The position numbers and the translations under genes are program-made. Positions 23,057-60,755 of a DNA stretch of 64,000 nt are shown here, piece after piece; positions within the stretch are counted from its first letter, which is position 1, and each line of letters opens with the position of its first letter. The stretch lies in the NCBI GenBank assembly GCA_017499595.2, contig CM039006.1:2666001-2730000 (forward strand), read 5' to 3'. The notes under the pieces are model-generated. The model saw nothing but the letters and a program-made list of their open reading frames with translations. It made no database searches and had not been told where the DNA came from. This DNA comes from Psilocybe cubensis. Taxonomy: Eukaryota.

Positions 23057-25498
23057 TCAAGCAGACCAGCCGCTGCCGCGATTATGATATGACTCGCTGA
23101 AAACCAGTGCACGAGATGGGGAGGACTGGGTACCACATGCAGATCGTGCTTTTTGGGTGGGCCTTCCACTGTTTTCCCACTCGTTGTCTGATACGGCAGG
23201 AGCCTGGGATCGCTTTCCGAGTACCTTGGCAGATGGGCGATATGTCAAATTTGGCAGTTTAGCCGCTGGTGGACTTGAGTATTCCGAATTGGCCTCGCGA
23301 AGGGTTTGAGAAGAGATGTGTGGTACATCCTTTTCAGGAGTGTACTGCTCGACATCCAACGTACCATCTGGACTGAGTGAGTGAGATCGATGGCGAGACA
23401 ATGATTGTTGACGTGCACGAGCTTCAAAACGAGGAGATGCATAACGAGGGTGGGGGGAGCTAGGCTGGTGATACATGGCAGTGCGAGGTTGATGAGAGGG
23501 AGGACTTCGACGAGAAGGGGACTGCCTACGAGACGGAGAGTGATGGTAAGATTGTGGTTGACCTTTTGACTCTGAGTAATGTTGAGATGAAGGTGTTCGT
23601 TGCTGCGGTCGAGATTGGTGGCGACGGGGAGACTGACCACGAGGAGTATCATGGAAATAATGGCGGGGAGACCGACCACGCAATGTAGCATCATGACGGC
23701 GGGGAGATTGAACATGTTGACGAGGTGAACTGTGGTGGCGGGATGGGGGTACAGGTTGAAGAGTGTGGTGGGACAATTGTGCAGGCACTGCAAGGTGCGG
23801 TACAACCTTCTTACTATCTTTTGAAGACGTACCAGCTTGTCCCAATCCTACAGATCTACCTCCCTTGCCTTGACCTGAACCTCCTGCTTCCTTGCCCCCC
23901 CCTTCTGTAGTAGATGCAGCTGCCTGAGCCTTGCGTGCTTTTCTGGCACGTCGTTGTTCCGCAATTGTATCATAGGTCGATGGGCCATCCAGATTGTCTT
24001 TAGTTTTCGCTGAGCGAGGGTCCTTGTTCAGGACCTTCCTGTAACGTGGTTCAAAGATCAACAATCTTGCGCAGCATGCGAAAAAGGACTTACGCATTCC
24101 ACCATTCTATAGTGTCCATTGACCATTCCGAGTCCCCGTCGTCCTTTTTATCTGGTTCAAACAGCGAGATGATGTATTTATAAAATTCATGACGATCAAA
24201 AACGTTGTCTTCAATACGCCAGTCTTCGATGCTTGAGATAGAGTAACGGATCTAGGCGGTGTAGATGAGCACAGTGTGAAAAATAAAGTTCAGACCCTTA
24301 CCAGCAGACAGGCATACGCAATTGAGGCTGGGGTGACTGTTTTCATGTGATGTATCTTGGCTTGGGAACTTCGTGTTTTGGTTTGGCCGGGCTTATCTTT
24401 AAGAGCCGACGAGGGCGAGGTAAAAATGTGCTTCCAAACCTGGTGGGAGCATTAGAAGCAATCATTTAATGTACTAAAACTTACCATGACTATGAGTCGT
24501 GTTCGAAACATCTCCGAGTCCCAATCCTCAGGATCAAATTTGTCTGATTCCCACAGAAAGGTGGGAAGGTCCTTTGCGAGAACATGGATTACATCTTTGT
24601 CAAGCTTGCACATAAATCTAAAAGTGAAGGGCCGTGCATATAGTTAGCATTACACCCTTACCAAGACATGGCCAACGTATTACTTACTCCGTAGGATTGT
24701 CATCAAAATCCTTGAGATACTTCATCGGGCACAAAAGACGAGCCAAAACCTTGTTCTTGAATCCACGCGATTCCGATTTGGTGGATGTTGCACTAATTTC
24801 GACCTTGTTGGCTGGCGAACACTCATTGATATACGTAATAATTGTGTTTTGAAGAGTTGAAATGTCCTCGGACCTGGCTGCCCCAGATGCAGCAATCATC
24901 TAGAATCCAACCATAGAACACTATAGTAAGACAGTTAAGATGAATGCAAATGAAAGGTACTTACTGCCTTGGCCAGATCGTCCTTTCGGTCAACATTCTT
25001 CGGGGATATAAAGTAGAATAGGTCTGATTCAAAACATTTGATACCAGCGATCATGTCAGCAAAAACAATGAGCTCATTTCTGTATTGATTTTCAAAGCTA
25101 CAAGGGTTATATGAGTAGATATATGCGCATATATTATCTGTTACAACTCACTTTTTTATATCGGTATCCCCAAATGAATCTATGTAGTATGAAATACCGC
25201 GGTCCAGAACCTCGTACCAGTTTTCGTAGAGATTTTTGCTCCGGGTATGCCAGCGAGCAAAAGACGTGTACGGTTTGAGAATTGCCCTAAAATTAAGTGA
25301 GCCTTGAGAATAAAGACAAAAGGAAGCGACATGCGCTGATTGCTTTGTTTTCCCTTGACTGTCAAGGGCTTTATTAAGGGCTTGAATGCGTTCCGGGTCT
25401 ATTTGGTGTTGATCCTTGCTCTCTTTGGGGTCGGATTCGCCATCATCGCTGTCGCTTGGGGCAGAAGGAGGAGCTTTGCGCAAAGAAGCAGGAGGCAT
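23057..25498 (-). CDS. Transposon accessory protein, DUF6698-like, with long disordered Ser/Arg/Pro/His-rich C-terminus (spliced)
   Basis: ATG 25498. Motifs RGFKNKVLARLLCP, PTFLW..FDPED, HIFTSPSSA, MKTVTPASIAYA, YSISSIEDW, FDRHEFY, IEWWN match my recollection of DUF6698. 3' end approximate. Confidence 0.7.
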
Positions 25499-27628
25499 GG
25501 TGGGAGGTTGAGTAAAAGAAGATGAGAAAGATGATGCGGGTTGAACACGGTGTTTAGCACACTCACGTGATTGCTGCCCTGGCTCCTTGCGCGACTGCTG
25601 CTTCCCTTTACCACTTGTCAACACAATCCATGCCCTTGCCAACCAGTCAATGAAATCCTTTTACTTCATTTTCCTAGGAGTTATCCTTATGGTGTTTTCA
25701 TGTAGTGGATGCACTGCTCCACCGTTCAAGAATTTGCAAGCCTTAACTGTTCATCGAAGGAATTGCAAAGGAGTGGCCAAAAACTCGCAACAAATTATAG
25801 AAAACTCGGCAAAAGCATTATCCCAAAGGAATAAGCGTCAACGCCTCTCTAATGCTTTAGAAAATGTTCCTGGACCTTCGGTATATTTTATTTGTGACCA
25901 TTTCTTTCCAAAATAAAACTTACACATTCTGTACAGCACGATTCAGAGCCTGAGGCTCCCATTAACATTGATATCACTGGAGAGCCAAATGTACATGATG
26001 CTCCGGACCATCCGGTTATTTCTGCACCAGCATTTGTTCTACCACCTACTCGGAGTGGCTGTGAACGGAAGTTCCCAAAGCAATATGCCGACATGCTACC
26101 GAACTCTTCTACATATTTACCACATCTCCCTCCGGCTCCACCACGGCTACCAAAGGAGCCCTCGAAACGAGCTGAAAAGCTTAGAGCAGCTTCTAGTACC
26201 CCTCCACCAGATCCTAAAGACATGTATCTGCGTAGCGAAATCAATGATTTTGGACTATATCGTGTTTATCCCTCGTTTCCCACCTGCGAAGTCAACGAAT
26301 CTGATGATCTTGACAACTTATGTGATGCACCAGGTCTGGCCACAGCAAGCGGCAAATCAAAAACACGATGGTGGAAGTCATTTGGCATCAATTCCGTGGA
26401 TACAACTTCTCAGAATGTTAGTCTTTTCACGCCATTTATGAACGCCACAATATTTCGTCTGGTCAACTGGTTTTATTCTGGGTCAAACCTCAAGTCGGCT
26501 GGTGAATTGGACCGTCTGGTTAAAGATGTACTCCTGGCCGATGACTTCGACAAAAACCACCTCAAAAACTTTAGTGCCAAACGAGAGTTTAGTCGCCTCG
26601 ATGAAACTGACGCTCAATTCCCTATTTCTTCGAGCAATACCTGGAAAACATCAACTGTCAAGCTCTCTTTACCTGCCGAAAATGTCCCACATTGTGCTGA
26701 ATCAGAGGCTCCTGTTCTGGAGGTTCCAAATGTACACCATCGAAGTCTTGTAGAGGTTATAAAGTCTGCCTTGGAAGACGAGTCGACAAACAATTTTCAT
26801 TATACTCCCTTTTGTCTTTTTTGGCAACCAACCAAGGAAAGCACTCCTGAACGAGTCGTTTCAGAGCTATACAACTCGGAGGCATTCTACGAAGAGCATG
26901 TGCGACTACAGCAGCAACCTCGAGAGCCTGGATGTACTCTAGAGGTTGCCATTGCCGGGCTGATGCTGTGGTCAGACTCGACACACCTTGCACAGTTTGG
27001 AAATGCCTCATTGTGGCCCATTTATCTCTTTTTTGGAAATCAATCGCAATATTTTCGTGCCAAACCCAAAAACTTTGCCGCCCATCATGTCGCCTACATT
27101 CCCTCGGTAAGTAATATATGAACTATGTCAAGATATATTGTTTATCGAGTGTTATAGCTCCCAAATTTCCTGCAGGATATTTATATGAAAGCTTTTAATG
27201 GTCTTGCAGCATCTGCAGCTACAATAACTCACCTCAAGCGTGAGCTCATTCAAGCAATTTGGCTTCTATTGCTCGATCCTGAGTTTATGCACGCGTATGA
27301 ACACGGAATTGTGATCAAATGTAGCGATGGTATAGTTCGGCGGATCTTTCCACGATTTTTTACCTACTCAGCTGACTATCCGGAGAAGTAAGTTCTTCTA
27401 TTCTTGTTAACGTGACAAGATTATTAATTATCTCCAAAAGAATACTTCTCGCGACTATCCGGTACCTTGCAAAATGCCCGTGTCCACGATGCTTGATCCC
27501 AATGTTCCGTATTGGGGATTTGGGAACAAAGGTTGACGACCAGCGACGCCAACACATACGAATTGACACACCATCGCGACAATACACAGTTGAGCAGAGT
27601 CGTAAACACATCTATGAACAAGGGAAGG

Positions 27629-28078
27629 TGTCAGGGTTTCTCCAGTTTTCCCTCTTTATCTTCACAGATTTATCTTATCCTTTCATTATCTTATCAATTA
27701 TCTGATTAGATAGTTTATTTCTTTCATCACAGCCTTCTTGCTCTGCTTCTTTCTAGTAAATTCTATATGATTCTTAGTCTTACTCATCCTTTTTCTATAT
27801 GATGTCACTTTTATTCTTTAACCTTCCTTTATGATATAATGTAGGGAATATTCTAGAATAGCTGTAGAGTATAAATACTGGACTTGTAGGTAGCTGTAGC
27901 TTCAGCTTCAATCTCTTAGGATATCCACTATCATTGGTGTGATCTCTTAGAATCATTGAGTCTCTCTCACTCTCTTATTCTCTCTCTGCTCTCTTACTCT
28001 CCCTCTGCTCTCTTTCTCTCTCTCTTGCTTGATCTTTGTTGGTGGCCTTGTCACACTGATTATAGTGTTGCCCTGACA
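27629..28078 (+). repeat. 5' LTR (450 bp)
   Basis: TGTCAGGG...CCCTGACA termini, TATAAATA at 27870; no difference from 33560-34009 found by eye. Confidence 0.97.
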
Positions 28079-28080
28079 GA

Positions 28081-28091
28081 AGATTGAAGCT
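28081..28091 (+). promoter_or_regulatory. Putative self-priming primer-binding site
   Basis: AGATTGAAGCT is the exact reverse complement of LTR 27904-27914 (AGCTTCAATCT). No tRNA-type TGG PBS is present. Confidence 0.75.
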
Positions 28092-28583
28092 CTCTCAAGA
28101 CAACTCCACCATCTCTCTTTCAACACCACACTCTTCACCTCTTCAACCTCTTCAACATCATCACCTCAACCTTCTTCCTCCACTTCCAACCCACCAACCT
28201 CTTCATCAACCTCTTCACCAATCTTCTTACCAACCTCTACATCTCCTCCAATCTTCAACATCCTCCTCAAGACCTTTCCTCAAGACCTTTCCTCAAGACC
28301 TTTGGCTCATCATCTTTCCTACTCTCTGTTGTGTGCTGTGTGTGAACTTAGTAGATAGGGATACCAACTGTTGGGGCAGACACAGTCCTACTAGTGTTCT
28401 GTTTTTGGTGGTCTAGGAAATATCCAGTAACCCTGTGATCCTAGGTTTAGAGCCCTGAGTGGTGTGACAACTGGGTATCCAGTAGATAGATATTTTTTTT
28501 AGAATACTTAGTATAGTTTCAAGGGCACTTTTAGTAGATAGCTTCTCCCACACACACATCAGAGAGCCTACCTACCCCTACCC

Positions 28584-29681
28584 ATGGACATGGACCCCTC
28601 CCAATTGCCTCCCACCACTCCTTCTGTGGAAGAGCTCATGCATCAGGTCCAGCTCCTTACCCAAGAGTTGAATTTTCTTAGACAGCAGCAGCAGTCATCA
28701 TCCACTCCACCACACCCTCAGCAACCAGTCAGTCAGTCACCATCACCACCACCTGCTGCTCTAGATATTCACTCTTTCCCTACCCCTCATGTTGCCCCTT
28801 CCTGTTCACACTCTGTCATTAAAGTCTCACCTCCAGATCCATTTGATGGTTCTATGGAGAAGGCAGAAAACTTCCTCAGTCAGCTCAAATTATATTTCTA
28901 TGGGAAAGGGATTACAGATGACTTTCAGAAAGTTATTTGTGCTCTATCTCATATGAAAGGAGGTACTGCTGGGAAGTGGGCATATGAGAAGACTAAAGTA
29001 ATAGACAATGCTCAGTCCCAAGAAGGTCTTTGGGCTGACTTTGTTTATGAATTTAGGGAAGTGTTTGCAGATCCAGACCCCTCCAACACAGCTAAGCATA
29101 AAATGCACATGCTCAAGCAAGGCAGGCAGACTGCTGATGAGTATGTTGCTAGCTTCAGGGCTCTGATCTCAGATACTGGGTATAATGATGCTGCTTTGGT
29201 AGACCAATTCAAGGCTGGGCTTAATGAAAATCTCAGGAATGCAGTCTACTATGTTCCTGACATGCCCAAAACCTTGGATGGATGGATTAAATGGAGTACT
29301 AGGCTAGATAGGCAGTGGAGACAGAGTGAGGCCTTTACCAAGTCTCTTTCCTCCTCCTCTTCTTCTCCCTTCCTTAAAGCCCCAACTCCCAAGGCTGTTC
29401 CTAAGCCTACTCCAAATCCTCCAGTCTTTTCCAACAGCAGCTCAAGGACCTTTGGTGCTCAGGCAAAGCAACCAGATGTAGTTCCCATGGAGGTTGACTC
29501 TGGATGGAAGTCAGTTAGGCCAATTGTTTGCTTCAAGTGCAGAAAGCCTGGTCATAAGGCTGTAAACTGCAGGTCATCAGTTAACATCAATGCTATGACC
29601 CATGAAGAACTGGCTGACTACTTTGGGAAATTAATCTTGGAAGGAAAGGAGCAGAAAGATGAGGAAAAGAAAAATTTTTAG
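28584..29681 (+). CDS. gag: Retrotransposon Gag
   Basis: 365 aa; PDPFDG, LKQGRQTADEYVASF, VPMEVD and zinc knuckle CFKCRKPGHKAVNC. Confidence 0.95.
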   Translation: MDMDPSQLPPTTPSVEELMHQVQLLTQELNFLRQQQQSSSTPPHPQQPVSQSPSPPPAALDIHSFPTPHVAPSCSHSVIKVSPPDPFDGSMEKAENFLSQLKLYFYGKGITDDFQKVICALSHMKGGTAGKWAYEKTKVIDNAQSQEGLWADFVYEFREVFADPDPSNTAKHKMHMLKQGRQTADEYVASFRALISDTGYNDAALVDQFKAGLNENLRNAVYYVPDMPKTLDGWIKWSTRLDRQWRQSEAFTKSLSSSSSSPFLKAPTPKAVPKPTPNPPVFSNSSSRTFGAQAKQPDVVPMEVDSGWKSVRPIVCFKCRKPGHKAVNCRSSVNINAMTHEELADYFGKLILEGKEQKDEEKKNF

Positions 29682-32600
29682 AAGCACCATTGGTGAAAGA
29701 CATGTCCCAATGGAATAGATTTAATGTACTAGAAAATGAAATTGACAGATTTGATCCTCAGTCTTCAGATTCTGGTGCAGAAATCATGTCTACTTCTTCC
29801 TCTCTTTCTACCTTCCCTGAAAAGATCTACATCCTCAACCATAATCCTAAAACCTCTACCCATTTGTCTGTCATCTTAAAGACAATGGACACAGAGAAAA
29901 GGTTATCTGTTGATGCTTTGCTTGATTCTGGAGCTACTGGCCTCTTTCTGCATTCTGGTTTTGTGAAGTATCATAATCTCAACACAAGGAAACTTCCTAG
30001 AGCCATTCCAGTCTATAATGTTGATGGTACTCTCAACAAGAGTGGCTCTATCCATGAGGAAGTAGACTTAATTATGGTACACAAGAACCATACAGAAAGG
30101 GCCACCTTTGCTGTTTGTGACTTGGGAGACAAATCTGCTATCATTGGACATACTTGGCTTTGGCACCATAATCCAGATGTTGATTGGAAGACAGGGGATG
30201 TTCAGTTTATTAGATGTCCCTCTGACTGCCAAATGGAAGCCAAAAGAGCCAGAAGAAAGAGGCAGAGAATAGCTGCAGTCAAAAGGAGGAAACTCCCTCA
30301 ATTTGATGAAGAAGGAGATGATTCTATTGAAGATTCTTCTGATTCTGAGATTGAGCCTGAGGACAGAATTTTTATCTCATATCTTCATCCTCAGAAGCAG
30401 TCTATTAATGCTACTTCTACTATGTCTCAAAGATTAGCAGAAGAGTCTCATCAGCAAGCTGATTCCCCTAAGAAAACCTTTGAAGAAACTGTTCCTAAGC
30501 ACTATCATCAATTTAAAGGTGTTTTTTCAAAGGAATCTTTTGATAGGCTACCAGATAGAAAGCCTTGGGATCATGCTATTGAGCTGAAACCTGGTTCTGA
30601 ACCTTACAGATCCAAGATTTATCCTCTTTCTCCTAATGAACAAAAGGAACTTGATGCCTTTTTAGAGGAAAATCTGAAATCTGGCAGGATTAGACCCTCC
30701 AAGTCACCTATGGCCTCCCCTGTATTCTTTGTCAAGAAGAAGGATGGATCTCTTAGGCTTGTCCAGGACTATAGGAAACTAAATGAAATGACCATCAAGA
30801 ACTCCTACCCCCTTCCATTGATTTCTGACATTATCACCAAACTCAGCAAAGCCAAATACTTCACCAAACTTGATGTTAGGTGGGGATTTAACAATGTCAG
30901 AATCAAAAAGGGAGATGAATGGAAAGCAGCCTTTAGAACCAATAGAGGGCTGTTTGAACCATTGGTCATGTTCTTTGGTTTAACCAATAGTCCTGCTACC
31001 TTCCAAACTATGATGAATGATATCTTTATTGAGCTCATTGATGGAAATGTTGTCATTGTCTACATGGATGACATTTTAATTTTCACTGAGACTCTTGATC
31101 ATCATAGAGAGGTAGTCAAGCAAGTTCTGCAAATCCTAGAACAGAACAAACTCTACCTTAAAGCAGAGAAATGTGAATTTGAAAAGGAAAAGATTGAATA
31201 TCTTGGACTAATCATTTCACAAGGCAGGATTGAGATGGATCCTGTCAAGGTAGAGGGAGTTTCTAAATGGCCTGAACCTGAAAATGTCAAGGATGTCCAA
31301 TCATTCTTGGGATTTGTTAATTTTTATAGAAGGTTCATAGAGGATTTTGCAGACATTGCTAAGCCCCTTCATGAATTGACAAAGAAAGGAACAGTCTGGA
31401 GATGGAGTCTTAGACAGCAGGAAGCCTTTGACCAGTTAAAGAAGAAAGTCACTTCTTCACCTGTCTTGATTTTCCCTGATGATAACAAGCCATATAAAGT
31501 TGAAGCAGACAGTTCAGATTATGCTACTGGGGCTGTTTTATCTCAGGAAGGATCAGATGGGAAATGGCATCCTGTAGCCTTTATGTCTAAGAGTCTATCT
31601 GAAGTAGAAAGGAATTATGAGATCCATGACAAAGAGATGCTGGCTATTATCAGAGCACTAGATGAATGGAGACATTATCTTGAAGGAACCCAACATTCCT
31701 TTGAGATTTGGACAGACCACAAAAACTTAGAGTACTTTATGGTTGCCCAAAAGCTCAGCAGAAGGCAAGCCAGATGGTCACTCTTCCTGTCCAGATTTGA
31801 TTTTACTCTTCATCATAGGCCTGGTAAAAGATCTCTTAAGCCAGATGCTTTGTCTAGGAGACCAGATCATAAAAAGGGAGAGAATGATAACCAAAATGTA
31901 GTTCTCCTCAAACCTTCCTACTTTAAAATCCAGGCTCTCAAGCAGGGTCATGCTACCATTACTGGTGCAGAAAATGATCTTCTTAAGAAGATTAGAGAAG
32001 CTAAGGAGATGGATGAAAAGGTGGTCAAGGCAGTTCAGGAGCTCAAGAAATCTTCTACCAAGAAGATTGAAGGACAGGAATGGTCAGAAGAACAAGGCCT
32101 TATTCTCTACAGGGGGAAGGTGTATGTTCCCAAGGACAAAGATCTTAGAAGAAAGATTGTGGAACTGCACCATGATGCCTTCATTGCTGGACATCCAGGG
32201 AAATGGAAGACAATTGAGCTAGTCTCTAGGAATTATTGGTGGCCAGGAATGTCACATTTTATTGCAGCCTATACCAGAGGTTGTGATAGATGCAACAGAA
32301 CCAAAACCTTTCCAGCCAAACCTCTTGGTCTTTTAATTCCTACTGAGATTCCCTCTGATGTCTGGCAATGCATTTCTGTGGACTTTATTATGGGGTTACC
32401 AGAATGTCAAGGGTATAATGCCATTATGGTGGTTGTGGATAGACTTAGTAAAATGATCCACATTATCCCTACTACAGATGAAGTCACTTCTGAAGGGACA
32501 GCCAGACTATACAGAGATTATGTCTGGAAACACCATGGCTTACCCATTAAAATTCTGTGTGATAGAGGTCCACAGTTTGTCTCAAGGTTTATGAAAGAAC

Positions 32601-33559
32601 TCAACTCAATACTTGGTATCCAGACAGCCTCATCTACAGCCTACCATCCCCAAACTGATGGTCAGACTGAAAGGGTTAACCAAGAAATTGAGCAGTATCT
32701 TAGACTCTTCATAAATCATAGACAAGATGATTGGGTTGAATGGTTAGCTCTGGCTGAATTCTCTTATAACAACAGAGTTCAGGCTTCAACTAGGCAGACA
32801 CCATTCATGCTCAATAATGGCAGACATCCCAGAATGGGCACTGAACCCCTTAGAGATAGTAAAATGGACACTGTGGATACCTTTGTGAAAAATATGGAAG
32901 AAGCCAGAAAAGAAGCAGAGTCTGCACTTAGAAAAGCTGCTGATGATATGGCTAAATTCTATAATAGACACAGAGGTACTCCAACTCAGTACAAAGTTGG
33001 GGATTTGGTATGGTTGGATGGCAAGGACCTCAAAACTGATAGGCCCTCCAAGAAATTGGATGATAAAAGATATGGGCCTTACAAAATTACCAAAGTTATT
33101 AGCCCTAATGCCTATGAGCTTAAGCTGCCATCCACCATGAAAATCCATCCAGTGTTCAATGTGGTTAAACTTCTACCTTATCACCCAGATATTGTAGGAA
33201 GAAAGCCACCTTCTAGACCACCTCCAGTCATTCAAGGAGAAAATCCTGAGTGGGAAGTTGAATTTATCAAGGACAGCAGACTTTTTAGAAACAAACTTCA
33301 ATATTTGGTCAAGTGGAAAAACTATCCTAATGAAGAATGCACTTGGGAGCCTGCAGAGCATTTGAAAAATGCTTCTAAGGCTATCAAGGACTTCCATGCC
33401 AAACACCCTTCAGCACCTAGAAGGATTTCTGCTGTGACCTTTGATAGACTTTCTTTCACTCCTATTATTAACTTTACTGAACCTCCTCCCCTTCTTAAAC
33501 CCTCTAAACTAACCCATCCATGTGCACATTGTGGAAAATGTGCCTTAGAGAGGGGGTGA
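29672..33559 (+). CDS. pol: Retrotransposon Pol (protease, RT, RNase H, integrase, chromodomain), in the -1 frame relative to gag
   Basis: LLDSGAT, YPLP, YMDDIL, DSSDYATGAVL, H-H-C-C zinc finger, DDE core (SVDF, DRGPQF, GQTERVNQ), GPY motif, chromodomain (WEVEFI...YLVKWKNYPNEECTWEP). No internal stop over 1289 aa. Confidence 0.96.
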   Translation, partial: KFLEAPLVKDMSQWNRFNVLENEIDRFDPQSSDSGAEIMSTSSSLSTFPEKIYILNHNPKTSTHLSVILKTMDTEKRLSVDALLDSGATGLFLHSGFVKYHNLNTRKLPRAIPVYNVDGTLNKSGSIHEEVDLIMVHKNHTERATFAVCDLGDKSAIIGHTWLWHHNPDVDWKTGDVQFIRCPSDCQMEAKRARRKRQRIAAVKRRKLPQFDEEGDDSIEDSSDSEIEPEDRIFISYLHPQKQSINATSTMSQRLAEESHQQADSPKKTFEETVPKHYHQFKGVFSKESFDRLPDRKPWDHAIELKPGSEPYRSKIYPLSPNEQKELDAFLEENLKSGRIRPSKSPMASPVFFVKKKDGSLRLVQDYRKLNEMTIKNSYPLPLISDIITKLSKAKYFTKLDVRWGFNNVRIKKGDEWKAAFRTNRGLFEPLVMFFGLTNSPATFQTMMNDIFIELIDGNVVIVYMDDILIFTETLDHHREVVKQVLQILEQNKLYLKAEKCEFEKEKIEYLGLIISQGRIEMDPVKVEGVSKWPEPENVKDVQSFLGFVNFYRRFIEDFADIAKPLHELTKKGTVWRWSLRQQEAFDQLKKKVTSSPVLIFPDDNKPYKVEADSSDYATGAVLSQEGSDGKWHPVAFMSKSLSEVERNYEIHDKEMLAIIRALDEWRHYLEGTQHSFEIWTDHKNLEYFMVAQKLSRRQARWSLFLSRFDFTLHHRPGKRSLKPDALSRRPDHKKGENDNQNVVLLKPSYFKIQALKQGHATITGAENDLLKKIREAKEMDEKVVKAVQELKKSSTKKIEGQEWSEEQGLILYRGKVYVPKDKDLRRKIVELHHDAFIAGHPGKWKTIELVSRNYWWPGMSHFIAAYTRGCDRCNRTKTFPAKPLGLLIPTEIPSDVWQCISVDFIMGLPECQGYNAIMVVVDRLSKMIHIIPTTDEVTSEGTARLYRDYVWKHHGLPIKILCDRGPQFVSRFMKELNSILGIQTASSTAYHPQTDGQTERVNQEIEQYLRLFINHRQDDWVEWLALAEFSYNNRVQASTRQTPFMLNNGRHPRMGTEPLRDSKMDTVDTFVKNMEEARKEAESALRKAADDMAKFYNRHRGTPTQYKVGDLVWLDGKDLKTDRPSKKLDDKRYGPYKITKVISPNAYELKLPSTMKIHPVFNVVKLLPYHPDIVGRKPPSRPPPVIQGENPEWEVEFIKDSRLFRNKLQYLVKWKNYPNEECTWEPAEHLKNASKAIKDFHAKHPSAPRRISAVTFDRLSFTPIINFTEPPPLLKPSKLTHPCAHCGKCALERG

Positions 33560-34009
33560 TGTCAGGGTTTCTCCAGTTTTCCCTCTTTATCTTCACAGAT
33601 TTATCTTATCCTTTCATTATCTTATCAATTATCTGATTAGATAGTTTATTTCTTTCATCACAGCCTTCTTGCTCTGCTTCTTTCTAGTAAATTCTATATG
33701 ATTCTTAGTCTTACTCATCCTTTTTCTATATGATGTCACTTTTATTCTTTAACCTTCCTTTATGATATAATGTAGGGAATATTCTAGAATAGCTGTAGAG
33801 TATAAATACTGGACTTGTAGGTAGCTGTAGCTTCAGCTTCAATCTCTTAGGATATCCACTATCATTGGTGTGATCTCTTAGAATCATTGAGTCTCTCTCA
33901 CTCTCTTATTCTCTCTCTGCTCTCTTACTCTCCCTCTGCTCTCTTTCTCTCTCTCTTGCTTGATCTTTGTTGGTGGCCTTGTCACACTGATTATAGTGTT
34001 GCCCTGACA
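33560..34009 (+). repeat. 3' LTR (450 bp)
   Basis: Direct repeat of 27629-28078, followed by TSD GAAGG. Confidence 0.97.
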
Positions 34010-37000
34010 GAAGGGGGTCAAGAGTACCGCAGTAGAAAACCTTTTACAAGGAAATTCCACTACACCAACCCGTGTATGTATTTATTTACCGCCTTATCTA
34101 CAGTGTACAGCCGCTAACAGAACACTTTTAGAATGCATTTTCAACCCGATTGTTTCAATTCGGCTTCAATTACTTCTCGATGTTTGTGCCAGATTTACTA
34201 CATGAATTTGAGCTCGGTGTGTGGAAGGCCGTGTTCTCACATTTAATGCGCATCCTACATGCATATGCCGAGAACAGCATTCAAAAACTCAACGAAAGGT
34301 CTGTTCTATCTGGATAGACTATTAATTCAGTCTAACTAATACAATAACAATCTAGATATCGCCAGGTAGAAACATTCGGGCAAGACACAATCCGAATGTT
34401 TTCAACCAATGCTTCAGCCATGAAGAAACTCGCAGCGCGAGACTTTGAAGACCTGCTACAGGTTTGTTTTGATCTCATTTATTTGGTGTTATGCTCAATT
34501 TGGCATGCTTTGAAGTGCTCAATGCCAGTTTTTGAGGGCTTACTGCCTCGAAAACACGATGAATTTATACAGAATATGCTGTTTACGCTATGTACATGGC
34601 ACGCTTACGCAAAGCTGCGTCTTCAGACGACTTCGACGCTCAATGGGCTCAAATCCACTACAAAAACCCTTGGCAAACTCCTTCGGGGGTTCGCTAAAGA
34701 CATATGTCCACATTATGATACAGTTGAACTTCCCCAAGAAGAAGCCGCACGAGTACGCCGTCGAGCAAATGCTGTCAAGAAAGGCAAGATTCTACCAAAT
34801 TCTCGGCGTAAGACTCGTAACTCTGGGCCCATTGATGAGGATGATTCCACTACCCAGTCAAAGCGCCGAAAAGTCTTTAATTTATTAACATACAAACTCC
34901 ATGCTCTTGGAGACTATGTTGCCTCGATCTGGAGGTATGGACCAACAAGTGGCTACTCGACACAGATTGTAAGTCTTGTTTATTATGATTATTTTGTGAT
35001 TACTGATTCGTTTTTTATGGATCAAACCAATTATAGGGAGAGCTTGAACACCGAAGAGTCAAGCGCTTCTATGCCAAAACAAACAAAGGACGCACCTTTG
35101 AACGGCAAATTACAAGACATCAATGTCGAGAACGCCTTCTTCGTACAATTTCTGAACGTGAAAAAAGATCCAAAAAGACCTCAACGGATATATTACAACA
35201 GGCGCCTTCAAACTACTCTACATCAAATGTTTCCAATGCTCCACACGTTCCATTCATTGAATCAGATGCACTTCCACCTACTCTACCTCAGCTGCACCAT
35301 CATATTAGTGCCGACAAGCGCCTCAAAGATAATGTCCACCGCTGGCTTTACACAAATGAGGGTGATCCTGCTCTCAAGGTAAATTGTGTTGCTTGCCACC
35401 TCCTTTCTTGCCCTCTACAATTATTTAATCTTACGTTTAGAACTTTATACGCGACCTCAAGAATCACCTTTTATCTCGCCTTCTAGGGCATACCGCCGAC
35501 AGTGACGATTATCTGTATTACTCTGATGAAGACCGCTACAATGTGCAAATTGTCAACAACCTCATGTTCCGACACAAGCTGCTCAGAATCAATTACACCA
35601 CGTACGATGTGAGGCGCCAACAAGACACAATCAATGCTCGAACTCACGCCGATATTATGACACTATCGGGGAACACGGCTGACAATGCTCATCCATATGC
35701 CTATGGTCGAGTATTAGGTATTTTTCACGTTGATGTTCAGCATCGTGGACCTCTTTCAACATCAAACCAAACTCATCGGATGAACTTTCTTTGGGTAAGA
35801 TGGTTTGAACTTGATCCAAACTACGTTGGAGGCTGGAAGACTAAGCGACTTCATCGGGTTCGCTTTATCAATTCCTCTTCATCTCTAGCCTTTGGGTTTC
35901 TAGATCCTGCAGATGTCATACGTGCATCTCATCTGATACCAGCTTTTGCACACGGGCCTACTGAGGAATATCTAGGTCCATCTATTGCCCGGCCTGTTCT
36001 CAAAAACCGAGTCAATCTGCTGAATCAAGATTGGCGATTCATGTATATTAATATGTAAGTCGTTCTCCAAGCTACTACTAATCGTAGTGTCTTATTGACT
36101 CCGGTGTAACGGGCAGGTTTGTTGACCGCGATATGTTTGTGAGATACCTTGGTGGCGGAGTCGGTCACTATACAACAAATGAATACACCATAAACCTCCG
36201 GCCTGACGATCACGATGTTCGGAATGTGTTTGTGGTACCTCACCATGGTGTAGACGATACAGGAGTTCATCTAGAAGACGAGGATGAAAGCATGGACTGG
36301 CTGGATGAAGAAGATACACACCTCCTGAGCAATGATGCCGATGAGCGCCATTTCTCCGAGGCTGACCCCGATGATTTCAACTCTGAAGATGATGACTGGG
36401 GTTATAAATCCCCTACCCACTCGTGCGACGGCTCAGACGATGAGACAGATCATTTGGATGATAGTGAAAGTGATCATGGGGAGGATCTTGGTGGGTCTGC
36501 GGGCACTATGGACGATGATGGTGTTGGTGGTGGTATGATTTATGAGCCCAACATTGGTGCGGAGGATGGCGAAGAGCCGTGGGAGATGGGTGATGAAGAG
36601 GCGGAAGGCTACGGTATTCTATAAGGCGGTTGTAACTGTATATCTACTAGATGCTAAATTGAATTTGTATTCCTCCCACTTCTTGAGTTGGATAGTGTTT
36701 GACCCCGTACAAATGGGTACAGGCCAGTGACAAGCCAGGTCATCTTGGACTTAAAGGCATTGAAGACAAAAATTGATCAACCTTGCATTTGAATGCATTG
36801 AAGTCAGAATTTTTGGGGCTGTTTTACATACAAACCACAAACTTTGCTGTGTGCTTCCAATGCATACCCAGAATTTTTCTATCTTAGATGAGACTCACCA
36901 TTATCATATTGCCAATAAATTCACAAATATAAATTGACGACAGAATGCAATGTCAGGCAGAAAATTATACTTACATTGGTTACTCTCTACCAAAATCTTA

Positions 37001-37977
37001 CCTCTCTTTTAAGGTCTTCCAAATATTTCTCGGGTATACGTTGTTCACCAAAAATTGTGGTTACTTTGGAAGGAAATGCAAAGTTATGTCAAAAATTGTA
37101 GTCACTTTGGACGTACATTGCATTGCCTTATTAATATCGTGAGACCTTGGATGGCGTACCCTGCAACCCATTCTTTTTGCCGATTTGCTGATGTCACTGT
37201 CACTGCACTGCACTCTGGCGGCAACACTACGTACAAATTCGTAGTAGGCGCCGATGGCGCTAAGAGCGTCGTGAGAAAGCAGCTTGGCTTGGCGTTTATC
37301 GGTGAGACGATGGAGCAGAGGATGATCGTGGGTGATTTCATAGGGGACGCCCCGTTCTTTATCAATGTGAGCACTTTGTCTGTGTTGTAGATTAATATGG
37401 CTGATTGAGCTTATCCAATTTTTTGGAGCAGAAATGGGGTTGGTGGAGAGACAATGAAGACAATGTGTAAGTTGCTGATTTAAACCATATTTGCGTAGTC
37501 TTTGCTGTTGAAAATCTGACTTTGTTACCATTATAGAACCGCTATACGACCCACTAATACACCAGGGAAATTCACATTTTTCACGGGTGGATATAAGAAC
37601 GTCAAATACGCCGAAATCTGCTCGAGTGATGACGCGGTTAAAGAATCTATTCTCAAGGGGACTGGAGGAAGGACCGATATAAAGATTGAGGAGTTTGTAT
37701 GGAGATCCCCTTACAGGTAAAGTCTTTTTAAAGCTTCAATGTGATGTATTAAACACCGATTTTGAAATAGGGTGAACGTACGTATGACCGAGACTTTCAG
37801 AAAGGGAAGGGTGTTCATTGTAGGAGGTATGAATTTGTATCCATTCTTGGGTGTTTTATCAACTGATGAGCAACACGCACAGATGCCGGACATGTTCACA
37901 GCCCAGCGGGAGCTCAGGTACTAAGCGATTCTGACTTGCAAACTATTCATCTAATTAACGCGATTGCAATTCTGTAG

Positions 37978-40107: not shown

Positions 40108-42180
40108 ATGACTTCCCCAGCTTCAGGCAAGTTCATGTACACAACAAACCTGGTTATCGCTTACAGAGAATGTTATAGATTACCCCGCCTGGAAGACTCT
40201 CCAGAATCTGTATGATACCACCCGCGAGTCCATTGTGCTCAAGGAACTCTTTGCATCGGACCCGCAGAGATTCGCAAAGTTCTCCAAGGAGTACAACTCG
40301 ACCTATGGCCCGCCAGTGCAGATTCTTCTCGACCTATCCAAGAACTTGATCACCGAACCCGTCCTCGGTGCCCTGCTCCAGCTCGTGCGCGAAGCTGGCG
40401 TCGAGAAAGTCCGGGATGCCATGTTCGCAGGCGAGCACATCAACACCTCCGAGGACCGCGCGGTGCTCCATGTTGCTCTGCGCAACTTCACCGACGGCGG
40501 GCTCTCGATCGCGCCGAATGAGGCGGGCGTGAACGAGGTCGACGGCGTGCGTGCGCATATGAAGGAATTTTCCGAGGCGGTGCGCTCGGGCGCGTGGAAG
40601 GGATACACGGGCAAGCCTATCGACACCATCGTGAACATCGGCATTGGCGGTTCCGATTTGGGCCCTGTTATGGTTACTGAGGCCCTCAAGCCGTACGCGA
40701 AGCGCGATTTGAAGGCGCACTTTGTGTCCAACATCGACGGTACACATATCGCGGAGACGCTCAGGGAGTGTAACCATGAAACAACCCTCTTCATCATCGC
40801 CAGCAAAACCTTTACCACACAGGAGACCATCACGAACGCGGAGACGGCCCGCAGCTGGTTCCTCCAAGCTGCAGGGGGCGCGAGTGCACAATCGCACATC
40901 GCGAAGCACTTCGTCGCGCTCAGCACCAACACAAAGGCGGTCACCGCCTTTGGAATTGATGCAAAAAATATGTTCCAGTTCTGGGACTGGGTCGGTGGAA
41001 GGTACAGTCTCTGGAGTGCCATCGGTCTCTCGATCGCTTTGGTCATTGGCTGGGACAATTTCGAGGACTTGCTCAAGGGTGCACATGGAATGGACAAGCA
41101 TTTCAAAGAGACTCCTCTCGAGCAGAATCTTCCGGTGCTAATGGCTGCCATTGGTATCTGGTACAATGATTTCTACGGTGCGTGTCGCTCTGTTTTACCT
41201 GGGGTCACTGCTGATGAAATTATAGGCGCCCAAACGCTCGCTCTATTGCCGTACGACCAATACTTGCACAAATTCGCGGATTACTTCCAACAGGTACGTA
41301 TCATGACTGGTACCACGACATATGGCCCTTTGTTTCTCTTTCTGTATTTTTGTTGTTACAAAATCTCATTTTTGCATTCCTCCAGGGAGATATGGAATCG
41401 AACGGAAAATCTATTACCAAAGGCGGACACAAAGTCGACTATCAGACAGGGGTGCGTATTTCTTCCTTACTTTTCTCGTCTCTCGTCACCGTCTCCTGAC
41501 CTCCAAAAAAAATTCATCCCTCAGCCAATCATCTGGGGCGCATCCGGCACAAACGGCCAACACTCGTTCTACCAGCTCGTACACCAAGGCACAAAACTCA
41601 TCCCCACCGACTTCCTCGCGCCCGCTACGACACACAACCCGATCGAGCACTCCAAGCACCACCGCATCCTGCTCTCCAACTTCTTCGCCCAGCCCGAGGC
41701 GCTCGCGTTTGGAAAGACCGAGGAGGAAGTTAGGAAGGAGCTGGGCAAGGAGGGCGAAGGCAACGAGGCGCTGGTGAAGAGCAAAGTCTTCGCTGGGAAC
41801 CGTCCAAGCACGAGTATCATGTTCCCGCTCCTCACGCCCGCGGTGCTCGGTGCGCTGATTGCGCTGTATGAGCACAAGATCTTCGTGCAGGGTGTTGTGT
41901 GGGGTATCAACTCGTTTGGTGAGTCGCGTTTTGTGCTGGGTTTTGTGGGTTTTATGTGGTTAGGAATACTTACCGTTGGATGTGTAGATCAAATGGGTGT
42001 CGAGCTCGGTAAGGTGCTCGCGAAGAAGATTCTCGCCCAGCTCGAGAAACCTACAGATGTCGTCGGCCACGACAGTTCGGTGCGTCACGCACTCTTTTTC
42101 ACCATTCCCCTGTTCTTGCTGACTCGACCGTGTAGACAACGGGATTGATCCACTACTACCAAAAGCACAGAAAAGAGTGA
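40108..42180 (+). CDS. PGI1: Glucose-6-phosphate isomerase (spliced)
   Basis: [85 protein letters not shown]. Confidence 0.97.
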
Positions 42181-42874
42181 AGAAGATAACTTTTTTTTCG
42201 ATATTTAATGTTCAGGAGACCCTCGTCGATCGCAATTAGGATCAGGATAGATATAACCACTAGAGTCGAAAAGACGGGAGGACGAGGCAAAAAAAGCAGT
42301 AAAATATGTACTTGTATGAATCGATGGACAAACAACAGTGATTGTTTTTAATCAACCGTGGACCCAGTGTATCGTCTAGGTGACCTGATGATACATGACA
42401 ACACCTGTTCGATAGACGTGGATGTCGAGAGCTACCTTGTTGCCCCTGGTTCCACGGATGGATTGCAGAATTTTGGTCCATTGAACGAGATTCTGTGGTG
42501 CAGATCGCTAGTTATCGTCCGTAGGTGTCAGAGACCTGCTTGATCAAATCCAAGAGTATAGGTCGTAATAGGAGATCGAAGAAAACTCGGAATAACCCAA
42601 GTGTGTATTGCGTTATACAGCGATGATTACAGTAAGTAAAAATAGGAGAAGTAAAGCCCGAACAGATGAATGCATGGGAAGAAAGAGTGTATCTAATAAA
42701 TGGAGGGATATATGGGGAGAGGCAAACTTTTGAGGTAGACGATGGCGCCGGAATGTTTGAATAAATGCTAAACGTACAACTACAACGAAGGAATAAGTGG
42801 TGTAAAAAGGAGGTCAATATAACTAAAAAGAAAAACCCGAAGTATAAAGAGGACAAATGGAAGGAAGTGCGGCG

Positions 42875-44104
42875 TTAATCGACCTTCTTTGGTTCTTCAG
42901 TCTTTTTTCGTTCTAGCACCTCCACCCAGTTCTTCGGGAACCATCCTTCGCGCCCTTCTCTCGTTCGGCCTTTCCACCACTGGCCGCCCTCTACCTCTAT
43001 CCGTGGGTCAATTTCAGCTCCTGTGCGTGGATCAAGCTTGCCAGTGATCGCTACGATCTCGTTCTCTTTCAAAGCGAGTTCAGCGGGGTTGGATGGGTTG
43101 AATGGGTACAGAGCCCTTGCGAATGTAAGGGATGATGGATCAAGGGGAGGAAGCTGCTGGCCGGGAAGTAGGCCACCGTTGGCAGCTGCCTGAGCTTGCG
43201 CACGCTCTTTGAGGATATGGATAAGTTTCGACATGGCGTATGGTACACCGAAGATAGCGAGAAGGAAGAAGATGAGAGGCTTCTTGCTCGCTTTTGGAGG
43301 TGGTGGGCCCATGGGGCCCTGGACAGGTCGGCCGTTGATGAACTCCCTGAATTCGTGGTTCAGGTTACCAGCCCCACCTTGTGGTCGGCCGGTAATAAGC
43401 TCCCTCATCCACCTCAGCAAGCCAAATAGTCCCAAAACACTCCCTAGCGCATTCCGTAGCTGGCCGAATTGCTCTGCGACACCTACCATGGCGAAGAAAG
43501 ATGAGTGTGTGGCCATGAACGTCGACTCGAGCATCTGTGCGACACCTGTAAAGGTCTGCACAATTGAATGGAGTAGTGCGAACGTATGTTGCGTTGTTGA
43601 CTCCAATGTCTGTGTGAGCGATGGTGTGCCATCGGGGTTCAGAGGTACTCCGTTCGGGCCTACGCCCATGCCCATACCGTAGCCACCCATACCGCCCATA
43701 CCATAGCCTCCGTAGCCGCCATATGACCCTAGTCCGCCATAAGACCCAATGCCGCCGTATCCACCACCGTAAGACCCTAGCCCACCATAGCTGCCTAGTC
43801 CTCCATATCCACCGTAAGTCGATCCCAATCCGCCATAGGATCCGAGTCCTCCATATCCTCCACCATAAGTTCCTGCTCCTAGTCTCGAATATGGAGAAGA
43901 AGAATAAGGAGAGGTCAACGCTGTCGATGTGGTGCTCCCGAATGCCGCAGGCCGTTCGGGTACAGTTGGCTGAGACGACGATGCTGTGGCCGCGTTGCTA
44001 GCCGTTGTTGTTGTCGCTGTCGTTGCTGATGATGTAGTTGGCAAAGCAGAACTAGTCGCAGTCGCTGCCCCACCTCTCTCCCAGGGTTTTGGTGGAGATA
44101 CCAT
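42875..44104 (-). CDS. PEX13: Peroxin 13 (SH3-domain peroxisomal membrane protein)
   Basis: MVSPPKPWER start, YGG-rich region, AQMLESTFMATHSSFFAMVGVAEQF, TM segment, and SH3 (ARALYPF...WWKGR...EGWFPKNWV). Uninterrupted ORF. Confidence 0.95.
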   Translation of the reverse strand: MVSPPKPWERGGAATATSSALPTTSSATTATTTTASNAATASSSQPTVPERPAAFGSTTSTALTSPYSSSPYSRLGAGTYGGGYGGLGSYGGLGSTYGGYGGLGSYGGLGSYGGGYGGIGSYGGLGSYGGYGGYGMGGMGGYGMGMGVGPNGVPLNPDGTPSLTQTLESTTQHTFALLHSIVQTFTGVAQMLESTFMATHSSFFAMVGVAEQFGQLRNALGSVLGLFGLLRWMRELITGRPQGGAGNLNHEFREFINGRPVQGPMGPPPPKASKKPLIFFLLAIFGVPYAMSKLIHILKERAQAQAAANGGLLPGQQLPPLDPSSLTFARALYPFNPSNPAELALKENEIVAITGKLDPRTGAEIDPRIEVEGGQWWKGRTREGREGWFPKNWVEVLERKKTEEPKKVD

Positions 44105-45104
44105 TGTGATAGTTGGAAAAGGGAGATAAATGAGATGGCGGTGGGGAGAGAAGAGGTGTTGTGACTGTGACCTCTTCCCGGTCAATGTGATTACCGGTGT
44201 GACGTGTGTGATAACGGGAATCAATTGCCGAGCCCGAACCAATACGGCAACATACGGCCACAAAAATATGGAGGGGCAATTATGTTTCCTATGTTCTTGA
44301 CGTATTTTCTGGAATATATGCAGCTTTATTCCCCAATTTTGCAACCTTACAGCCCATTTATATAATGAAAGGAACATTTGATGCTGCTCAAAGTTATCAT
44401 ATAACCATTGTTTACAGACTCTCAAGAGTTTCTCGAATCCCAGAACTTCCGAAAATGTCAAAGTTAGTTGCGGTATGCCCAGGATCTAGCTGCAGTACTA
44501 TACCTTTTATGATATCCGACTCCACCATAGAAGACAGCAAATACTTCTAGCGCCACGTCATTCTCCGATTCGACCTCGACAATTAATTTTGACGCAGTGG
44601 ACAACAACAGTATCCTTAGGATATCTGAATAGTGAGGTATAACTGCGACACTTTTTCTGTTATGGATCAAGGCAGTGAGTTAAGCAGGTAATGCTAGAAC
44701 ACATAATTCTGAACTGTAAACTAGTAAATAGCCATCGACTTCAAAATATAAATGGACAAAATCATCCACAAACACGATCATCATTCGCAAAGTAAAATTA
44801 TAGATGAAAAATAAAAAGCAAAAAACACTATTTGAGTGTCTTGTTTTTTCTAACCATGGTTATATAGATTTTTATGGCAGTTAACTGATGCAAAGAACAT
44901 GCCAGTGGAGTCGGTGTGACCTCTTGATGAACCGGCGATCAATCGGCACATTTGGAGCGGAGATTGAATGAGCCATTGCCGTCTCTTTGTACAAGAAGCA
45001 TTGTCAAAGAAAGGTTTATGGGTATTTTCATACCGATAGACCTATTCCCTAAATCAAACATTAAAAATTGACGATGATACCCCGCATAGAAAATAACGAT
45101 GGTA

Positions 45105-58694: not shown

Positions 58695-60755
58695 TTATTT
58701 TCCCTCAATCAAAATCATTATTTCCGCAGGGACAGCTGGGCGTTTATTCCACTCCTCAATCCATCCTGAACGCGCGCCGACTTCTTCATTGAAACTGGGA
58801 ATTGCGAAGACCCCTGTCACAAGCCAGATATTCCGATCGTTTCCTTCATGCTCTGCCAGAAGAGTAGGCAGTACAGCTCGGGCAACCATCAAGTTTGAGT
58901 TGGCGTCTGTGCGGAGTGCGCGCCCCTTCCTTCCGTTTTCAACACCCACGAGGTCGACAATGCCGGAAACGCCTGCCCGAGAAGCAGCTCTACCCTCTCC
59001 CCCTTGTTCGAACGTGCCAAACGCCTCGCCTGTCGAAGGTTCAAGCGCCCGACCATCTTCTCCCTGACCATAAATTGCAAAACCGCCTTCTGCGGAAGTC
59101 AATTCCCGACCGGTTTTGATTCTATGCACCCGCAGGTGCCACAGAGGCGTGTCCTTATGCGGAGGGACCAACCAGGTCTCTACTTCGACATCCTTCCAAG
59201 GATACCACATCGACCTTAACCACTTGCCATTTTCAATCCTGGCCTCCCTTGTATCTCGACGGCACTTCCACGTTTCGCCATTATCATCACTCAGCGCCAG
59301 CGTGCTATCACCGCCAAGCTCTTCGAGGGTTCCATTTCCAACTGGGACGCTGTAGCCGAATGCCGAAGAGTACGCCAGTTTCCCGTACTTTGCTGCACTC
59401 TGCTTCACCGGATATGAACATTGTTGCCCAGATGATAGGAGATATGTATGTCCTGCAAGGTTGGATGTAATATGAAGGGGGTGATTAAGGGCTTTCACTG
59501 TTCCACGAAGCGGCTCAGGGTATGGTTCTTCCTCTGATGCCCAGAATGGGTGTGTTTCCGGTAAAGCGAGAGTGACGAAGGATTTACAACACCAGTATGG
59601 CGATCCAGGAGAGTTGTAGTTCTCGGTCATGCTCTGATTGGGGTAAACATATCCGATCGTCAATGTGCCGTCGGGATAGAATGCTCCAGGTTGCTTCGCC
59701 CAGTATCGGATGTTTCGAAGCTGCAAACCTTTTATGACTCCCCACGTCAATGGCGCAGGGAGATCGACATCTGCGAAGGCCAAAGCACCCCAGAAGGATG
59801 ACATCGCGAATCGATATGTTAAACTCCTTCCAAATGGAATCGCACGACCTGGCGTACATCGAAGTCAACCATTTTTCAACTCATGCGAGACGTCAATCAG
59901 GCTTACCTTCGTCGTCGAAATAGTGCACAAAATCAAACGCAAACTTTCTCGCTCGTTTTCGGTATTCTTCACATCTTTTGGGGTCGTCTCCTTGTGCTAA
60001 CTTTGAGTATGCCAGCTGTGCGAACTGGATAGCAAAGGACGACGAATAGTAGTCGAGTTGGATTACACCCTCCGGACCGTCTCTGGACCACCCGTCACCA
60101 ATATAGAAAGTATCCAAATGGTCCAGGTCCGCCTTCATCCGTTTCGCATCAAAGCGGGCAGAACCTGCGCGAGACAAACCGAGATTCGCAAATACCTGCG
60201 TAGGCAGAGAGAATTTGTGTCAGCAGCTCGACAATTTTCCGGCCCCGCGAATCAGAAGTCATGGTCACACACCCTGAACCATAGCCAATTGGTGTTCGGC
60301 ATCTCTTTATCGTTCATGCCTCCCAGCCAATCCTCAAAGTTTCTCTTGGTCTCATCGCTGAGTGGGTCCCACAACTTTTCCTTTGCAACTGCGATGGCGA
60401 AGCCGATGGCAGAGCACTCGACCATGCGCTGGTCCTTGTTGCGCATGTTGCCCCAGAACTCATCGCTCTTGGGATCTGTGCCGTTCTTGAACCCGTCTAC
60501 CCACCGCTTGGTGCCATCGTAGTCGCCCCCTCCTCCTAGCAATGCAGCTAGCCCCCAAATGGGCCGAGAAAAACCTTCTAGTTGCGCTGCTGCCTCGTCG
60601 TAATGTGTGGCCGTGTGTCCGAGGTGGATACGCGCTCCTCCTGGAGAAGTATGCGCTGCTAAAGGATCTAGGATACCCACCAAAAACCTTGCCAGGTCAT
60701 CTTTTGTCCTCAGAGGGTTGGATGCGAAGGGTGCGGTTGGCGTGAAATTACCCAT
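58695..60755 (-). CDS. DUF2264-domain protein (two introns)
   Basis: [81 protein letters not shown]. Confidence 0.85.

Follow-up and report, generated by a model that had tools for sequence, protein, structure and literature searches.

An intact, multi-copy Ty3/Gypsy retrotransposon of Psilocybe cubensis that contains no CpG dinucleotide

Can a retrotransposon be without a single CpG dinucleotide and still remain intact and mobile? This question is raised by a Ty3/Gypsy element that occupies positions 27629 to 34009 of a 64,000-nucleotide stretch of the Psilocybe cubensis genome (assembly GCA_017499595.2, contig CM039006.1, positions 2,666,001 to 2,730,000 of the forward strand), which we refer to as the window. 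An original prediction, made from the sequence alone, had proposed that this 6,381-bp element is free of CpG where 200 or more CpGs would be expected, that its flanks are CpG-rich right up to both target-site duplications (TSDs), and that it is not a decayed copy. Direct counts agree with the first two of these claims. The element (GC content 41.0%) contains 0 CpG and 216 GpC dinucleotides, whereas 267 CpGs are predicted from base composition, or 251 if the CpG observed/expected ratio (o/e) of 0.94 for the rest of the window is applied. The nearest flanking CpGs are located at 27601, the last before the element, and at 34028, the first after it, which places them within 28 bp and 19 bp, respectively, of the outer ends of the long terminal repeats (LTRs). 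The CpG-free gap between them (27602-34027) measures 6427 bp, and no other gap of this kind in the window exceeds 275 bp.

The absence of CpG extends to every part of the element. Each LTR has 0 CpGs versus ~13.6 expected, and the leader has 0 versus 21.5. The coding parts are likewise without CpG, with 0 versus 57 expected in gag and 0 versus 158 expected in pol. Across the window in 1-kb bins, CpG o/e is 0 in the element and 0.69-1.34 in the remaining bins, each of which holds 26-88 CpGs. Chance cannot account for this absence. Furthermore, CpG alone is avoided, given that CAG (o/e 1.82), CTG (1.43), and GGCC (1.16) exceed expectation and that the words AGCT and GATC are at expectation or higher. 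Avoidance of CHG-type or other motifs is ruled out by the excess of CAG and CTG and the normal frequency of GpC words. Other dinucleotide steps of the element also depart from those of the rest of the window, with an enrichment of AG/CT and GA/TC (o/e 1.24-1.39) and a scarcity of AC/GT (0.78/0.70). AGR codons and purine runs explain this bias only in part.

The manner in which CpG is avoided is most apparent in the coding sequence. It had been predicted that all arginine codons would be AGA or AGG and that neither NCG codons nor CpGs at codon junctions would occur, and this proves to be correct. AGA or AGG is used in 91 of the 91 arginine codons in gag and pol, the codons TCG, CCG, ACG, and GCG number 0 in the element, and a C-ending codon precedes a G-starting codon in 0 of 376 cases in pol (67 expected). 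Where a pyrimidine-ending codon does stand before a G-starting codon, the pyrimidine is T in 227 of 227 cases, whereas elsewhere in the element 44% of such codons end in C (P ~1e-58). Shuffling synonymous codons within pol gives a mean of 68.6 +/- 6 CpGs, with a minimum of 48 in 2000 shuffles. The AGR use of the element does not follow host codon usage, given that 118 of the 161 arginines (73%) in six host or Plavaka open reading frames (ORFs) of the window are encoded by CGN and that these ORFs contain 44-159 CpGs each.

None of this resembles mutational decay. There are 0 in-frame stops in the 365 codons of gag and the 1298 codons of pol, and TpG/CpA o/e values are 1.21/1.15 in the element versus 1.13/1.10 in the rest of the window. 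Moreover, a change from CGN to AGR requires a transversion and is thus not producible by deamination. A relic of repeat-induced point mutation (RIP) or a similar process, or of deamination of 5-methylcytosine (5mC), was rejected on the grounds that stops are lacking, that TpG/CpA is near background, and that arginine is encoded entirely by AGR. The absence of CpG is therefore a matter of recoding at all codon positions rather than of decay, as had been proposed. The original prediction had also described a stop-free Pol of 1289 amino acids. The frame is indeed open, but it spans 1298 codons between stops.

The element is well preserved in other respects. The expectation of an intact, young Gypsy element is supported by the open gag and pol frames, by LTRs that do not differ at any of their 450 positions, and by the TSD GAAGG. 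Judging from its predicted domain order (protease, reverse transcriptase, RNase H, integrase, chromodomain; PR-RT-RH-IN-chromodomain), the element is an intact Ty3/Gypsy (Metaviridae) chromovirus, probably of the Tf1/sushi type, with the C-terminal chromodomain placing it among the chromoviruses.

Evidence that this element belongs to a larger family comes from raw DNA reads of a conspecific run (X15), which were mapped on positions 24629-37009 at a likeness of at least 85%. Depth is ~1491 in 13 internal bins and ~23.4 in 13 flank bins, a ratio of ~64 copy-equivalents. Among the 69269 mapped reads, 31462 match at 99% or more and 32976 match at 95-99%. Loose read ends at the LTR edges have a low consensus (0.35-0.44), which fits many different insertion sites. 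In addition, 13 reads join 27623 straight to 34010 with 5 shared letters and represent the empty site. The insertion in the window is therefore polymorphic within the species and absent from at least some of the sampled genome copies. The family is thus multi-copy and has been mobile recently.

Sequence differences among family copies reveal how they have diverged. We analyzed the best 40 of 635 variant places, of which 38 are inside the element. Coding variants make up 29 of these 38, and they comprise 24 synonymous and 5 nonsynonymous changes. This 24:5 ratio indicates that the copies diverged under protein-level selection, via transposition-competent lineages. Variant frequencies of 23-67% among copies reflect a sub-lineage structure. 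Taken together, the identical LTRs, the near-identical copies, the insertion polymorphism, and the signs of purifying selection indicate a recently active family.

A CpG arises at none of the 38 best-supported variant places within the element, which in part extends the observation from the copy in the window to other copies. The 38 include 16 T>C and 4 A>G changes. Since 23% of T residues precede G and 25% of A residues follow C, ~24% of such changes would be expected to create a CpG, and the probability of zero gains is ~0.005. The lack of CpG-creating changes among these common, mostly synonymous variants fits both mutation bias and selection. The more sweeping proposal that the whole lineage has been purged of CpG is thus supported to the extent of one full copy and 38 variants without a CpG gain.

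Several additional features of the read data were encountered. In the N-terminal part of gag (28737-28753), an in-frame CAC/CAT repeat is polymorphic in length, with insertions of 9, 12, or 15 nt present in hundreds of reads, and the leader carries a 13-nt deletion at 28264 in ~44% of reads. Run X10, which is labelled as a different organism (D), yields contigs ~99% identical to 27709-33568 at a depth of 10-14 and without the window flanks. Other X10 contigs that touch the RNase H region continue into CpG-containing sequence. Among the runs on record as RNA, none contains the element. Run X14, which is presumed to be RNA, contains five low-depth pieces (152-227 nt) that have no bearing on expression either way.

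Comparison with relatives indicates how unusual the combination of intact frames and absent CpG is. Protein searches return thousands of relatives, and the closest, at 88% identity, form a cluster in which Psilocybe cf. subviscida is represented by six annotated copies of 1253 aa. At the DNA level, 94 loci with 29-60% identity were compared (43-60% for metagenome, 33-52% for viral, and 29-59% for GTDB contigs), and this and the following figures apply among the matches listed. CpG o/e ranges from 0.01 to 1.3 in these loci, and 0 of the 94 are both CpG-free and intact in frame. For 66 loci, scoring was based on a match covering most of pol; short matches were left out, and locus L094 was handled separately. 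An ORF of at least 1000 aa is found in 0 of 21 relatives with a CpG o/e below 0.5, versus 7 of 9 with a value of at least 0.8. Across all 66, CpG o/e correlates with ORF length (Spearman 0.51, P 1e-5). The seven relatives whose longest ORF reaches at least 1100 aa use CGN for 45-83% of their arginines. Distant relatives thus keep their CpGs when intact and have broken frames when CpG-poor. As a separate matter, certain metagenome contigs carry CpG-free flanks of 1.3-3 kb and 31-35% GC (L071:1-1844, L030:357-1918, L065:7808-10812, and L012:5697-7030) that adjoin CpG-bearing Gypsy sequence of ~50% GC. Possibly these flanks are remnants of older repeats that have decayed and that surround insertions of a younger age.

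The assembly behind L094 (G001), titled as an actinobacterial metagenome-assembled genome of 6.65 Mb, provides a set of dead copies for comparison. Its GC content switches from ~70% to ~50% at ~4.286-4.290 Mb (loci L103-L117) with no N at that point, and from the switch to its end it is rich in transposable elements (TEs), with 105 Gypsy-pol matches. The assembly looks like a bacterial-eukaryotic chimera. Most of the 105 Gypsy matches are full of TGA stops (for example 21 TGA, 1 TAG, and 2 TAA), and the eight dead copies L095-L102 (G001:C1 4.42-6.53 Mb) carry 12-22 in-frame TGA stops each. The dead copies have a CpG o/e of 0.00-0.18 (0-25 CpG per 6 kb), TpG/CpA o/e values up to 1.64, and 8-25 TGA stops, which is the textbook picture of CpG erasure by deamination. 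One copy, L099, has 0 CpG in 5910 bp, yet it carries 28 stops.

Why might an intact family have been recoded in this way? The statement in the original prediction that basidiomycetes methylate repeats mainly at CpG is in agreement with published methylomes of other Agaricomycetes, in which 5mC is almost wholly at CpG and is concentrated in TEs (PMC6191308, PMC4457147, PMC6380393). CpG accounts for 98.7% of 5mC in Ganoderma, where C-to-T changes in TEs also prefer CpG and yield TGA stops (PMC4457147). Gypsy elements are reported to be 26-59% methylated and repressed in Pleurotus (PMC6191308), and 84-88% of them are CpG-methylated in Heterobasidion, with a negative correlation between methylation and expression (PMC6380393). 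CpG-biased hypermutation of repeats has been described for Rhizoctonia (PMC4014442). Agaricomycotina have DNMT1-RFD and DNMT5, which are CpG maintenance methyltransferases, according to a review (PMC13297926).

Given this background, it is reasonable to speculate about a course of events. Methylation of CpG in repeats would silence transcription, and methylated CpGs would deaminate to TpG or CpA, with CGA codons becoming TGA stops. A retrotransposon lineage replicating under such methylation would be expected to shed CpGs fast. Only sublineages with harmless losses would keep transposing, namely those in which arginine comes to be encoded by AGR, NCG codons become NCH, and C-G codon junctions become T-G. 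Newly arisen CpGs would be lost again or selected against. The codon choices expected under such a course match those observed in the element. The end state would be an element that offers no substrate for DNMT1-RFD or DNMT5 and has no hypermutable sites. Because there is no CpG in the element, neither heritable 5mC nor decay by 5mC deamination would be possible there.

On balance, we think it probable that the CpG-free state has arisen through long co-evolution with, and counter-adaptation to, the CpG-directed 5mC defence of Agaricomycetes. The motif is depleted against the host background as well as against synonymous expectation, as would be characteristic of a parasite that has lost the target of a defence. 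A more specific proposal, which we put forward tentatively and with somewhat more doubt than conviction, is that an active family has lost the only dinucleotide that its host can heritably methylate, and so might be 'unmethylatable' and escape both 5mC silencing and mutational decay. If true, this escape would explain how the family came to ~64 near-identical copies within a genome that otherwise has CpG at normal levels. The original prediction had likewise described a 'stealth' transposon invisible to CpG-methylation silencing, and this part of it is a hypothesis. The decisive advantage might lie in evading silencing, in being immune to mutation, or in a combination of the two.

Some facts weigh against co-evolution with a CpG-directed defence. 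The premise that the defence acts on CpG would rest on other Agaricomycetes rather than on P. cubensis itself. The analyzed variants are 40 of 635 variant places, and individual copies may carry CpG-creating variants among the other 595. The Plavaka-type transposase copy beside the element is not depleted of CpG (o/e 0.74-0.9) and gives no strong sign of CpG decay, although it is apparently single-copy at 85% likeness (flank depth ~23). Finally, L099 reached zero CpG by mutation alone, and so the zero of the window element is not in itself proof of selection. This last fact is relevant to the idea that pure mutation pressure brings CpG to a near-zero equilibrium, with protein selection merely filtering the losses and with no gain in expression or spread. 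We regard this as unlikely, but it has real points in its favor. The dead Gypsy copies of G001 do reach the very low CpG contents given above, CpG-biased C-to-T change is described for TEs of Ganoderma and Rhizoctonia (PMC4457147, PMC4014442), and the absence of CpG-creating variants would also be expected if new CpGs were lost again very fast. However, with the 445 TpG and 465 CpA dinucleotides of the element, an equilibrium estimate of at most 3 expected CpGs needs CpG decay at least ~150 times the reverse transitions, and at 10-15 times, 30-45 CpGs would be expected. The ~150-fold requirement implies either extreme mutation bias or selection against CpG. Mutation pressure is also difficult to reconcile with TpG/CpA levels that are barely above the host background and with the undepleted Plavaka copy next door. 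Furthermore, ~64 near-identical copies with a 24:5 ratio amount to an effectively immune family, and such immunity is itself an advantage.

Other explanations place the origin of the CpG-free state elsewhere. The element might have evolved in a more CpG-depleted host and arrived by recent horizontal transfer, in which case its composition would be uninformative on the defences of P. cubensis. Its AG/CT o/e values of 1.38/1.39 versus 0.94/0.95 and its GC content of 41% versus 45% in the rest of the window are in keeping with an import, as is the presence of the internal region at ~99% identity without flanks in run X10. This origin nevertheless seems improbable, given that the nearest named protein relatives are the multiple 1253-aa copies of Psilocybe cf. 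subviscida, a species closely related to the host, which fits residence in this fungal group, and that ~64 copies with sub-lineages point to prolonged activity in this species. In any case, the CpG-free state in a donor would need the same kind of explanation. Avoidance might instead operate on RNA or cDNA, through a ZAP-like CpG sensor of genomic RNA or a cDNA deaminase that acts at CpG-context cytosines. Among vertebrate viruses, CpG suppression driven by an RNA sensor is known, and here CpG is missing from the transcribed unit throughout. However, the U3 region (27629-27903) is also CpG-free, and if transcription starts near 27904, this region would be present in RNA only via the 3' LTR. 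Neither an RNA sensor nor a cDNA deaminase with CpG specificity is known to us from fungi, and we consider this explanation to be quite improbable. The idea that the element is an artefact, whether from faulty assembly or sequencing or from a CpG-free construct of synthetic origin, can be set aside with near certainty. We found no points in its favor, and an assembly artefact is excluded by the independent reads, which are deep and include those at 99% identity or more. The TSD, the empty allele, and the many genomic flanks likewise argue for a natural element, as do natural relatives at 61-88% protein identity.

How does a CpG-free family compare with systems that are already known? The domain order and putative primer site of the element presumably correspond to those of Tf1/Tf2 of fission yeast. 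With Tf1/Tf2 and Tf1/sushi chromoviruses it shares the gag-PR-RT-RH-IN-chromodomain order and SH3_Tf2-1, its 11-nt self-complementary site just past the LTR may be a primer site of the same kind, and the source names of its relatives include 'tf2 155 kDa protein type 1-like'. Whereas Tf1/Tf2 have a single fused ORF, the element has two frames with a putative -1 frameshift between them. To our knowledge, absence of CpG is not a described trait of the Tf1/sushi group, and the literature searched agrees. Lentiviruses and small DNA viruses, whose hosts methylate or sense CpG, suppress this dinucleotide, and phages avoid restriction sites. As in these cases, a parasite has depleted a motif recognized by host defence. 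The known depletions in viruses and phages are partial, whereas the element, a chromosomal retrotransposon of a fungus, has an o/e of 0.00 across 6.4 kb.

Within fungi, decayed Gypsy copies of Agaricomycetes, such as those of Ganoderma (PMC4457147) and the dead copies of G001, are similar in having very low or zero CpG. They differ by their TpG/CpA excess, loss of GC, and many TGA stops, none of which is seen in the window element. The closest precedent that we found is in TEs of Microbotryum, where TpCpG is scarce at places at which mutation would be nonsynonymous, and where the authors infer co-evolution of TEs and defence (PMC3318451, Horns et al. 2012). That study reports no clear RIP-like hypermutation in three Agaricomycotina (PMC3318451). 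Both cases involve basidiomycete TE lineages that are short of a CpG-context target, one that Microbotryum mutates in its repeats. The paucity in Microbotryum is a partial, position-dependent one of a trinucleotide, whereas the present element, intact and multi-copy, lacks CpG altogether, at synonymous and other coding positions as well as outside the coding sequence. An active fungal retrotransposon without CpG is not described in the full-text literature searched, which covered few subscription journals and no supplements and included the Psilocybe literature. We regard the finding as an extreme form of defence-target depletion in a genomic parasite, a type that is already known.

The features of the element and its insertion site are collected in Table 1. 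Relative to gag, pol is shifted to the -1 frame, with an overlap of 19 nt, and the AAATTTT heptamer before the gag stop is presumably the frameshift signal. Inspection of the sequence after the 5' LTR revealed no TGG-type tRNA primer site there, and we take the 11-nt complementarity between the LTR and the primer site to be a putative self-priming arrangement of the Tf1 type. Searches of the 64-kb window by blastn and tblastn found no further copies or solo LTRs of the element.

Table 1. Features of the CpG-free element and its insertion site (window positions; those of pol domains are conversions from residue numbers)
Feature	Position	Strand	Evidence
Left part of interrupted Plavaka-type transposase gene	25898..27628	+	PF18759 E 2.9e-14; CpG o/e 0.74-0.81
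5' target-site duplication GAAGG	27624..27628	+	Same 5 bases at 34010-34014; empty-site joint 27623 to 34010 with 5 letters fitting both sides
5' LTR, 450 bp, TG...CA	27629..28078	+	450/450 identical to 33560-34009; 0 CpG
11 nt in LTR complementary to primer-binding site; putative transcript 5' end (start of R)	27904..27914	+	Perfect inverted repeat with 28081-28091
Putative self-priming primer-binding site, 2 nt past LTR	28081..28091	+	Perfect 11-nt complement of 27904-27914
gag, capsid and CCHC zinc knuckle, 365 codons from first ATG	28584..29681	+	PF19259 Ty3_capsid E 3.2e-10; PF03732 E 1.5e-9; PF00098 E 3.5e-4
pol, CpG-free frame of 1298 codons without internal stop	29663..33559	+	ORF
AAATTTT heptamer, putative -1 frameshift site into pol	29672..29678	+	Immediately ahead of gag stop
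Protease DSG motif in pol	~29918-29941	+	Read from translation; no Pfam protease match in this copy
Reverse transcriptase in pol	30731-31216	+	RVT_1 E 1.1e-37
RNase H in pol	31478-31798	+	RT_RNaseH E 5.4e-39
Integrase zinc domain in pol	32135-32308	+	Integrase_H2C2 E 7.1e-20
Integrase core in pol	32366-32650	+	rve E 2.8e-10
SH3_Tf2-1 in pol	32999-33184	+	E 3.8e-18
Chromodomain in pol	33251-33400	+	PF00385 Chromo, residues 1197-1246, E 2.5e-15
Polypurine tract AGAGAGGGGG (role inferred from position)	33547..33556	+	Just upstream of 3' LTR
3' LTR, 450 bp, 0 CpG	33560..34009	+	Identical to 5' LTR
3' target-site duplication GAAGG	34010..34014	+	Matches 27624-27628

The flanking Plavaka transposase named in the original prediction is recognized by its PF18759 match (Table 1). 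When the element is removed in silico, the frame open at 27376 continues for ~63 codons to the right of the element. Because this Plavaka-type frame is unbroken across the empty site, the insertion has interrupted the transposase gene. Host genes with normal CpG are located 6-25 kb downstream (40112-44485 and 58695-59864) and encode phosphoglucose isomerase, peroxin-13, and a DUF2264 protein. The phosphoglucose isomerase ORF shares 95% identity with its counterpart in P. cubensis and 89% with that in P. cyanescens, which points to a Psilocybe-like agaric as the host.

CpG depletion is usually read as a scar that host defence leaves on dead elements. Its occurrence on a living family is evidence of transposon counter-adaptation, within the strength given to that reading above. 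Families of this kind would be misclassified by TE annotation or 'RIP index' pipelines in which low CpG is taken as a sign of inactivation. If the family is unmethylated and active, it would provide a natural CpG-free expression unit in an agaric, comprising both promoter and coding sequence. Under the same condition, it would serve as a natural experiment on the share that 5mC has in the control of TEs in mushroom-forming fungi, relative to methylation of histone H3 lysine 9 (H3K9) or RNA interference.

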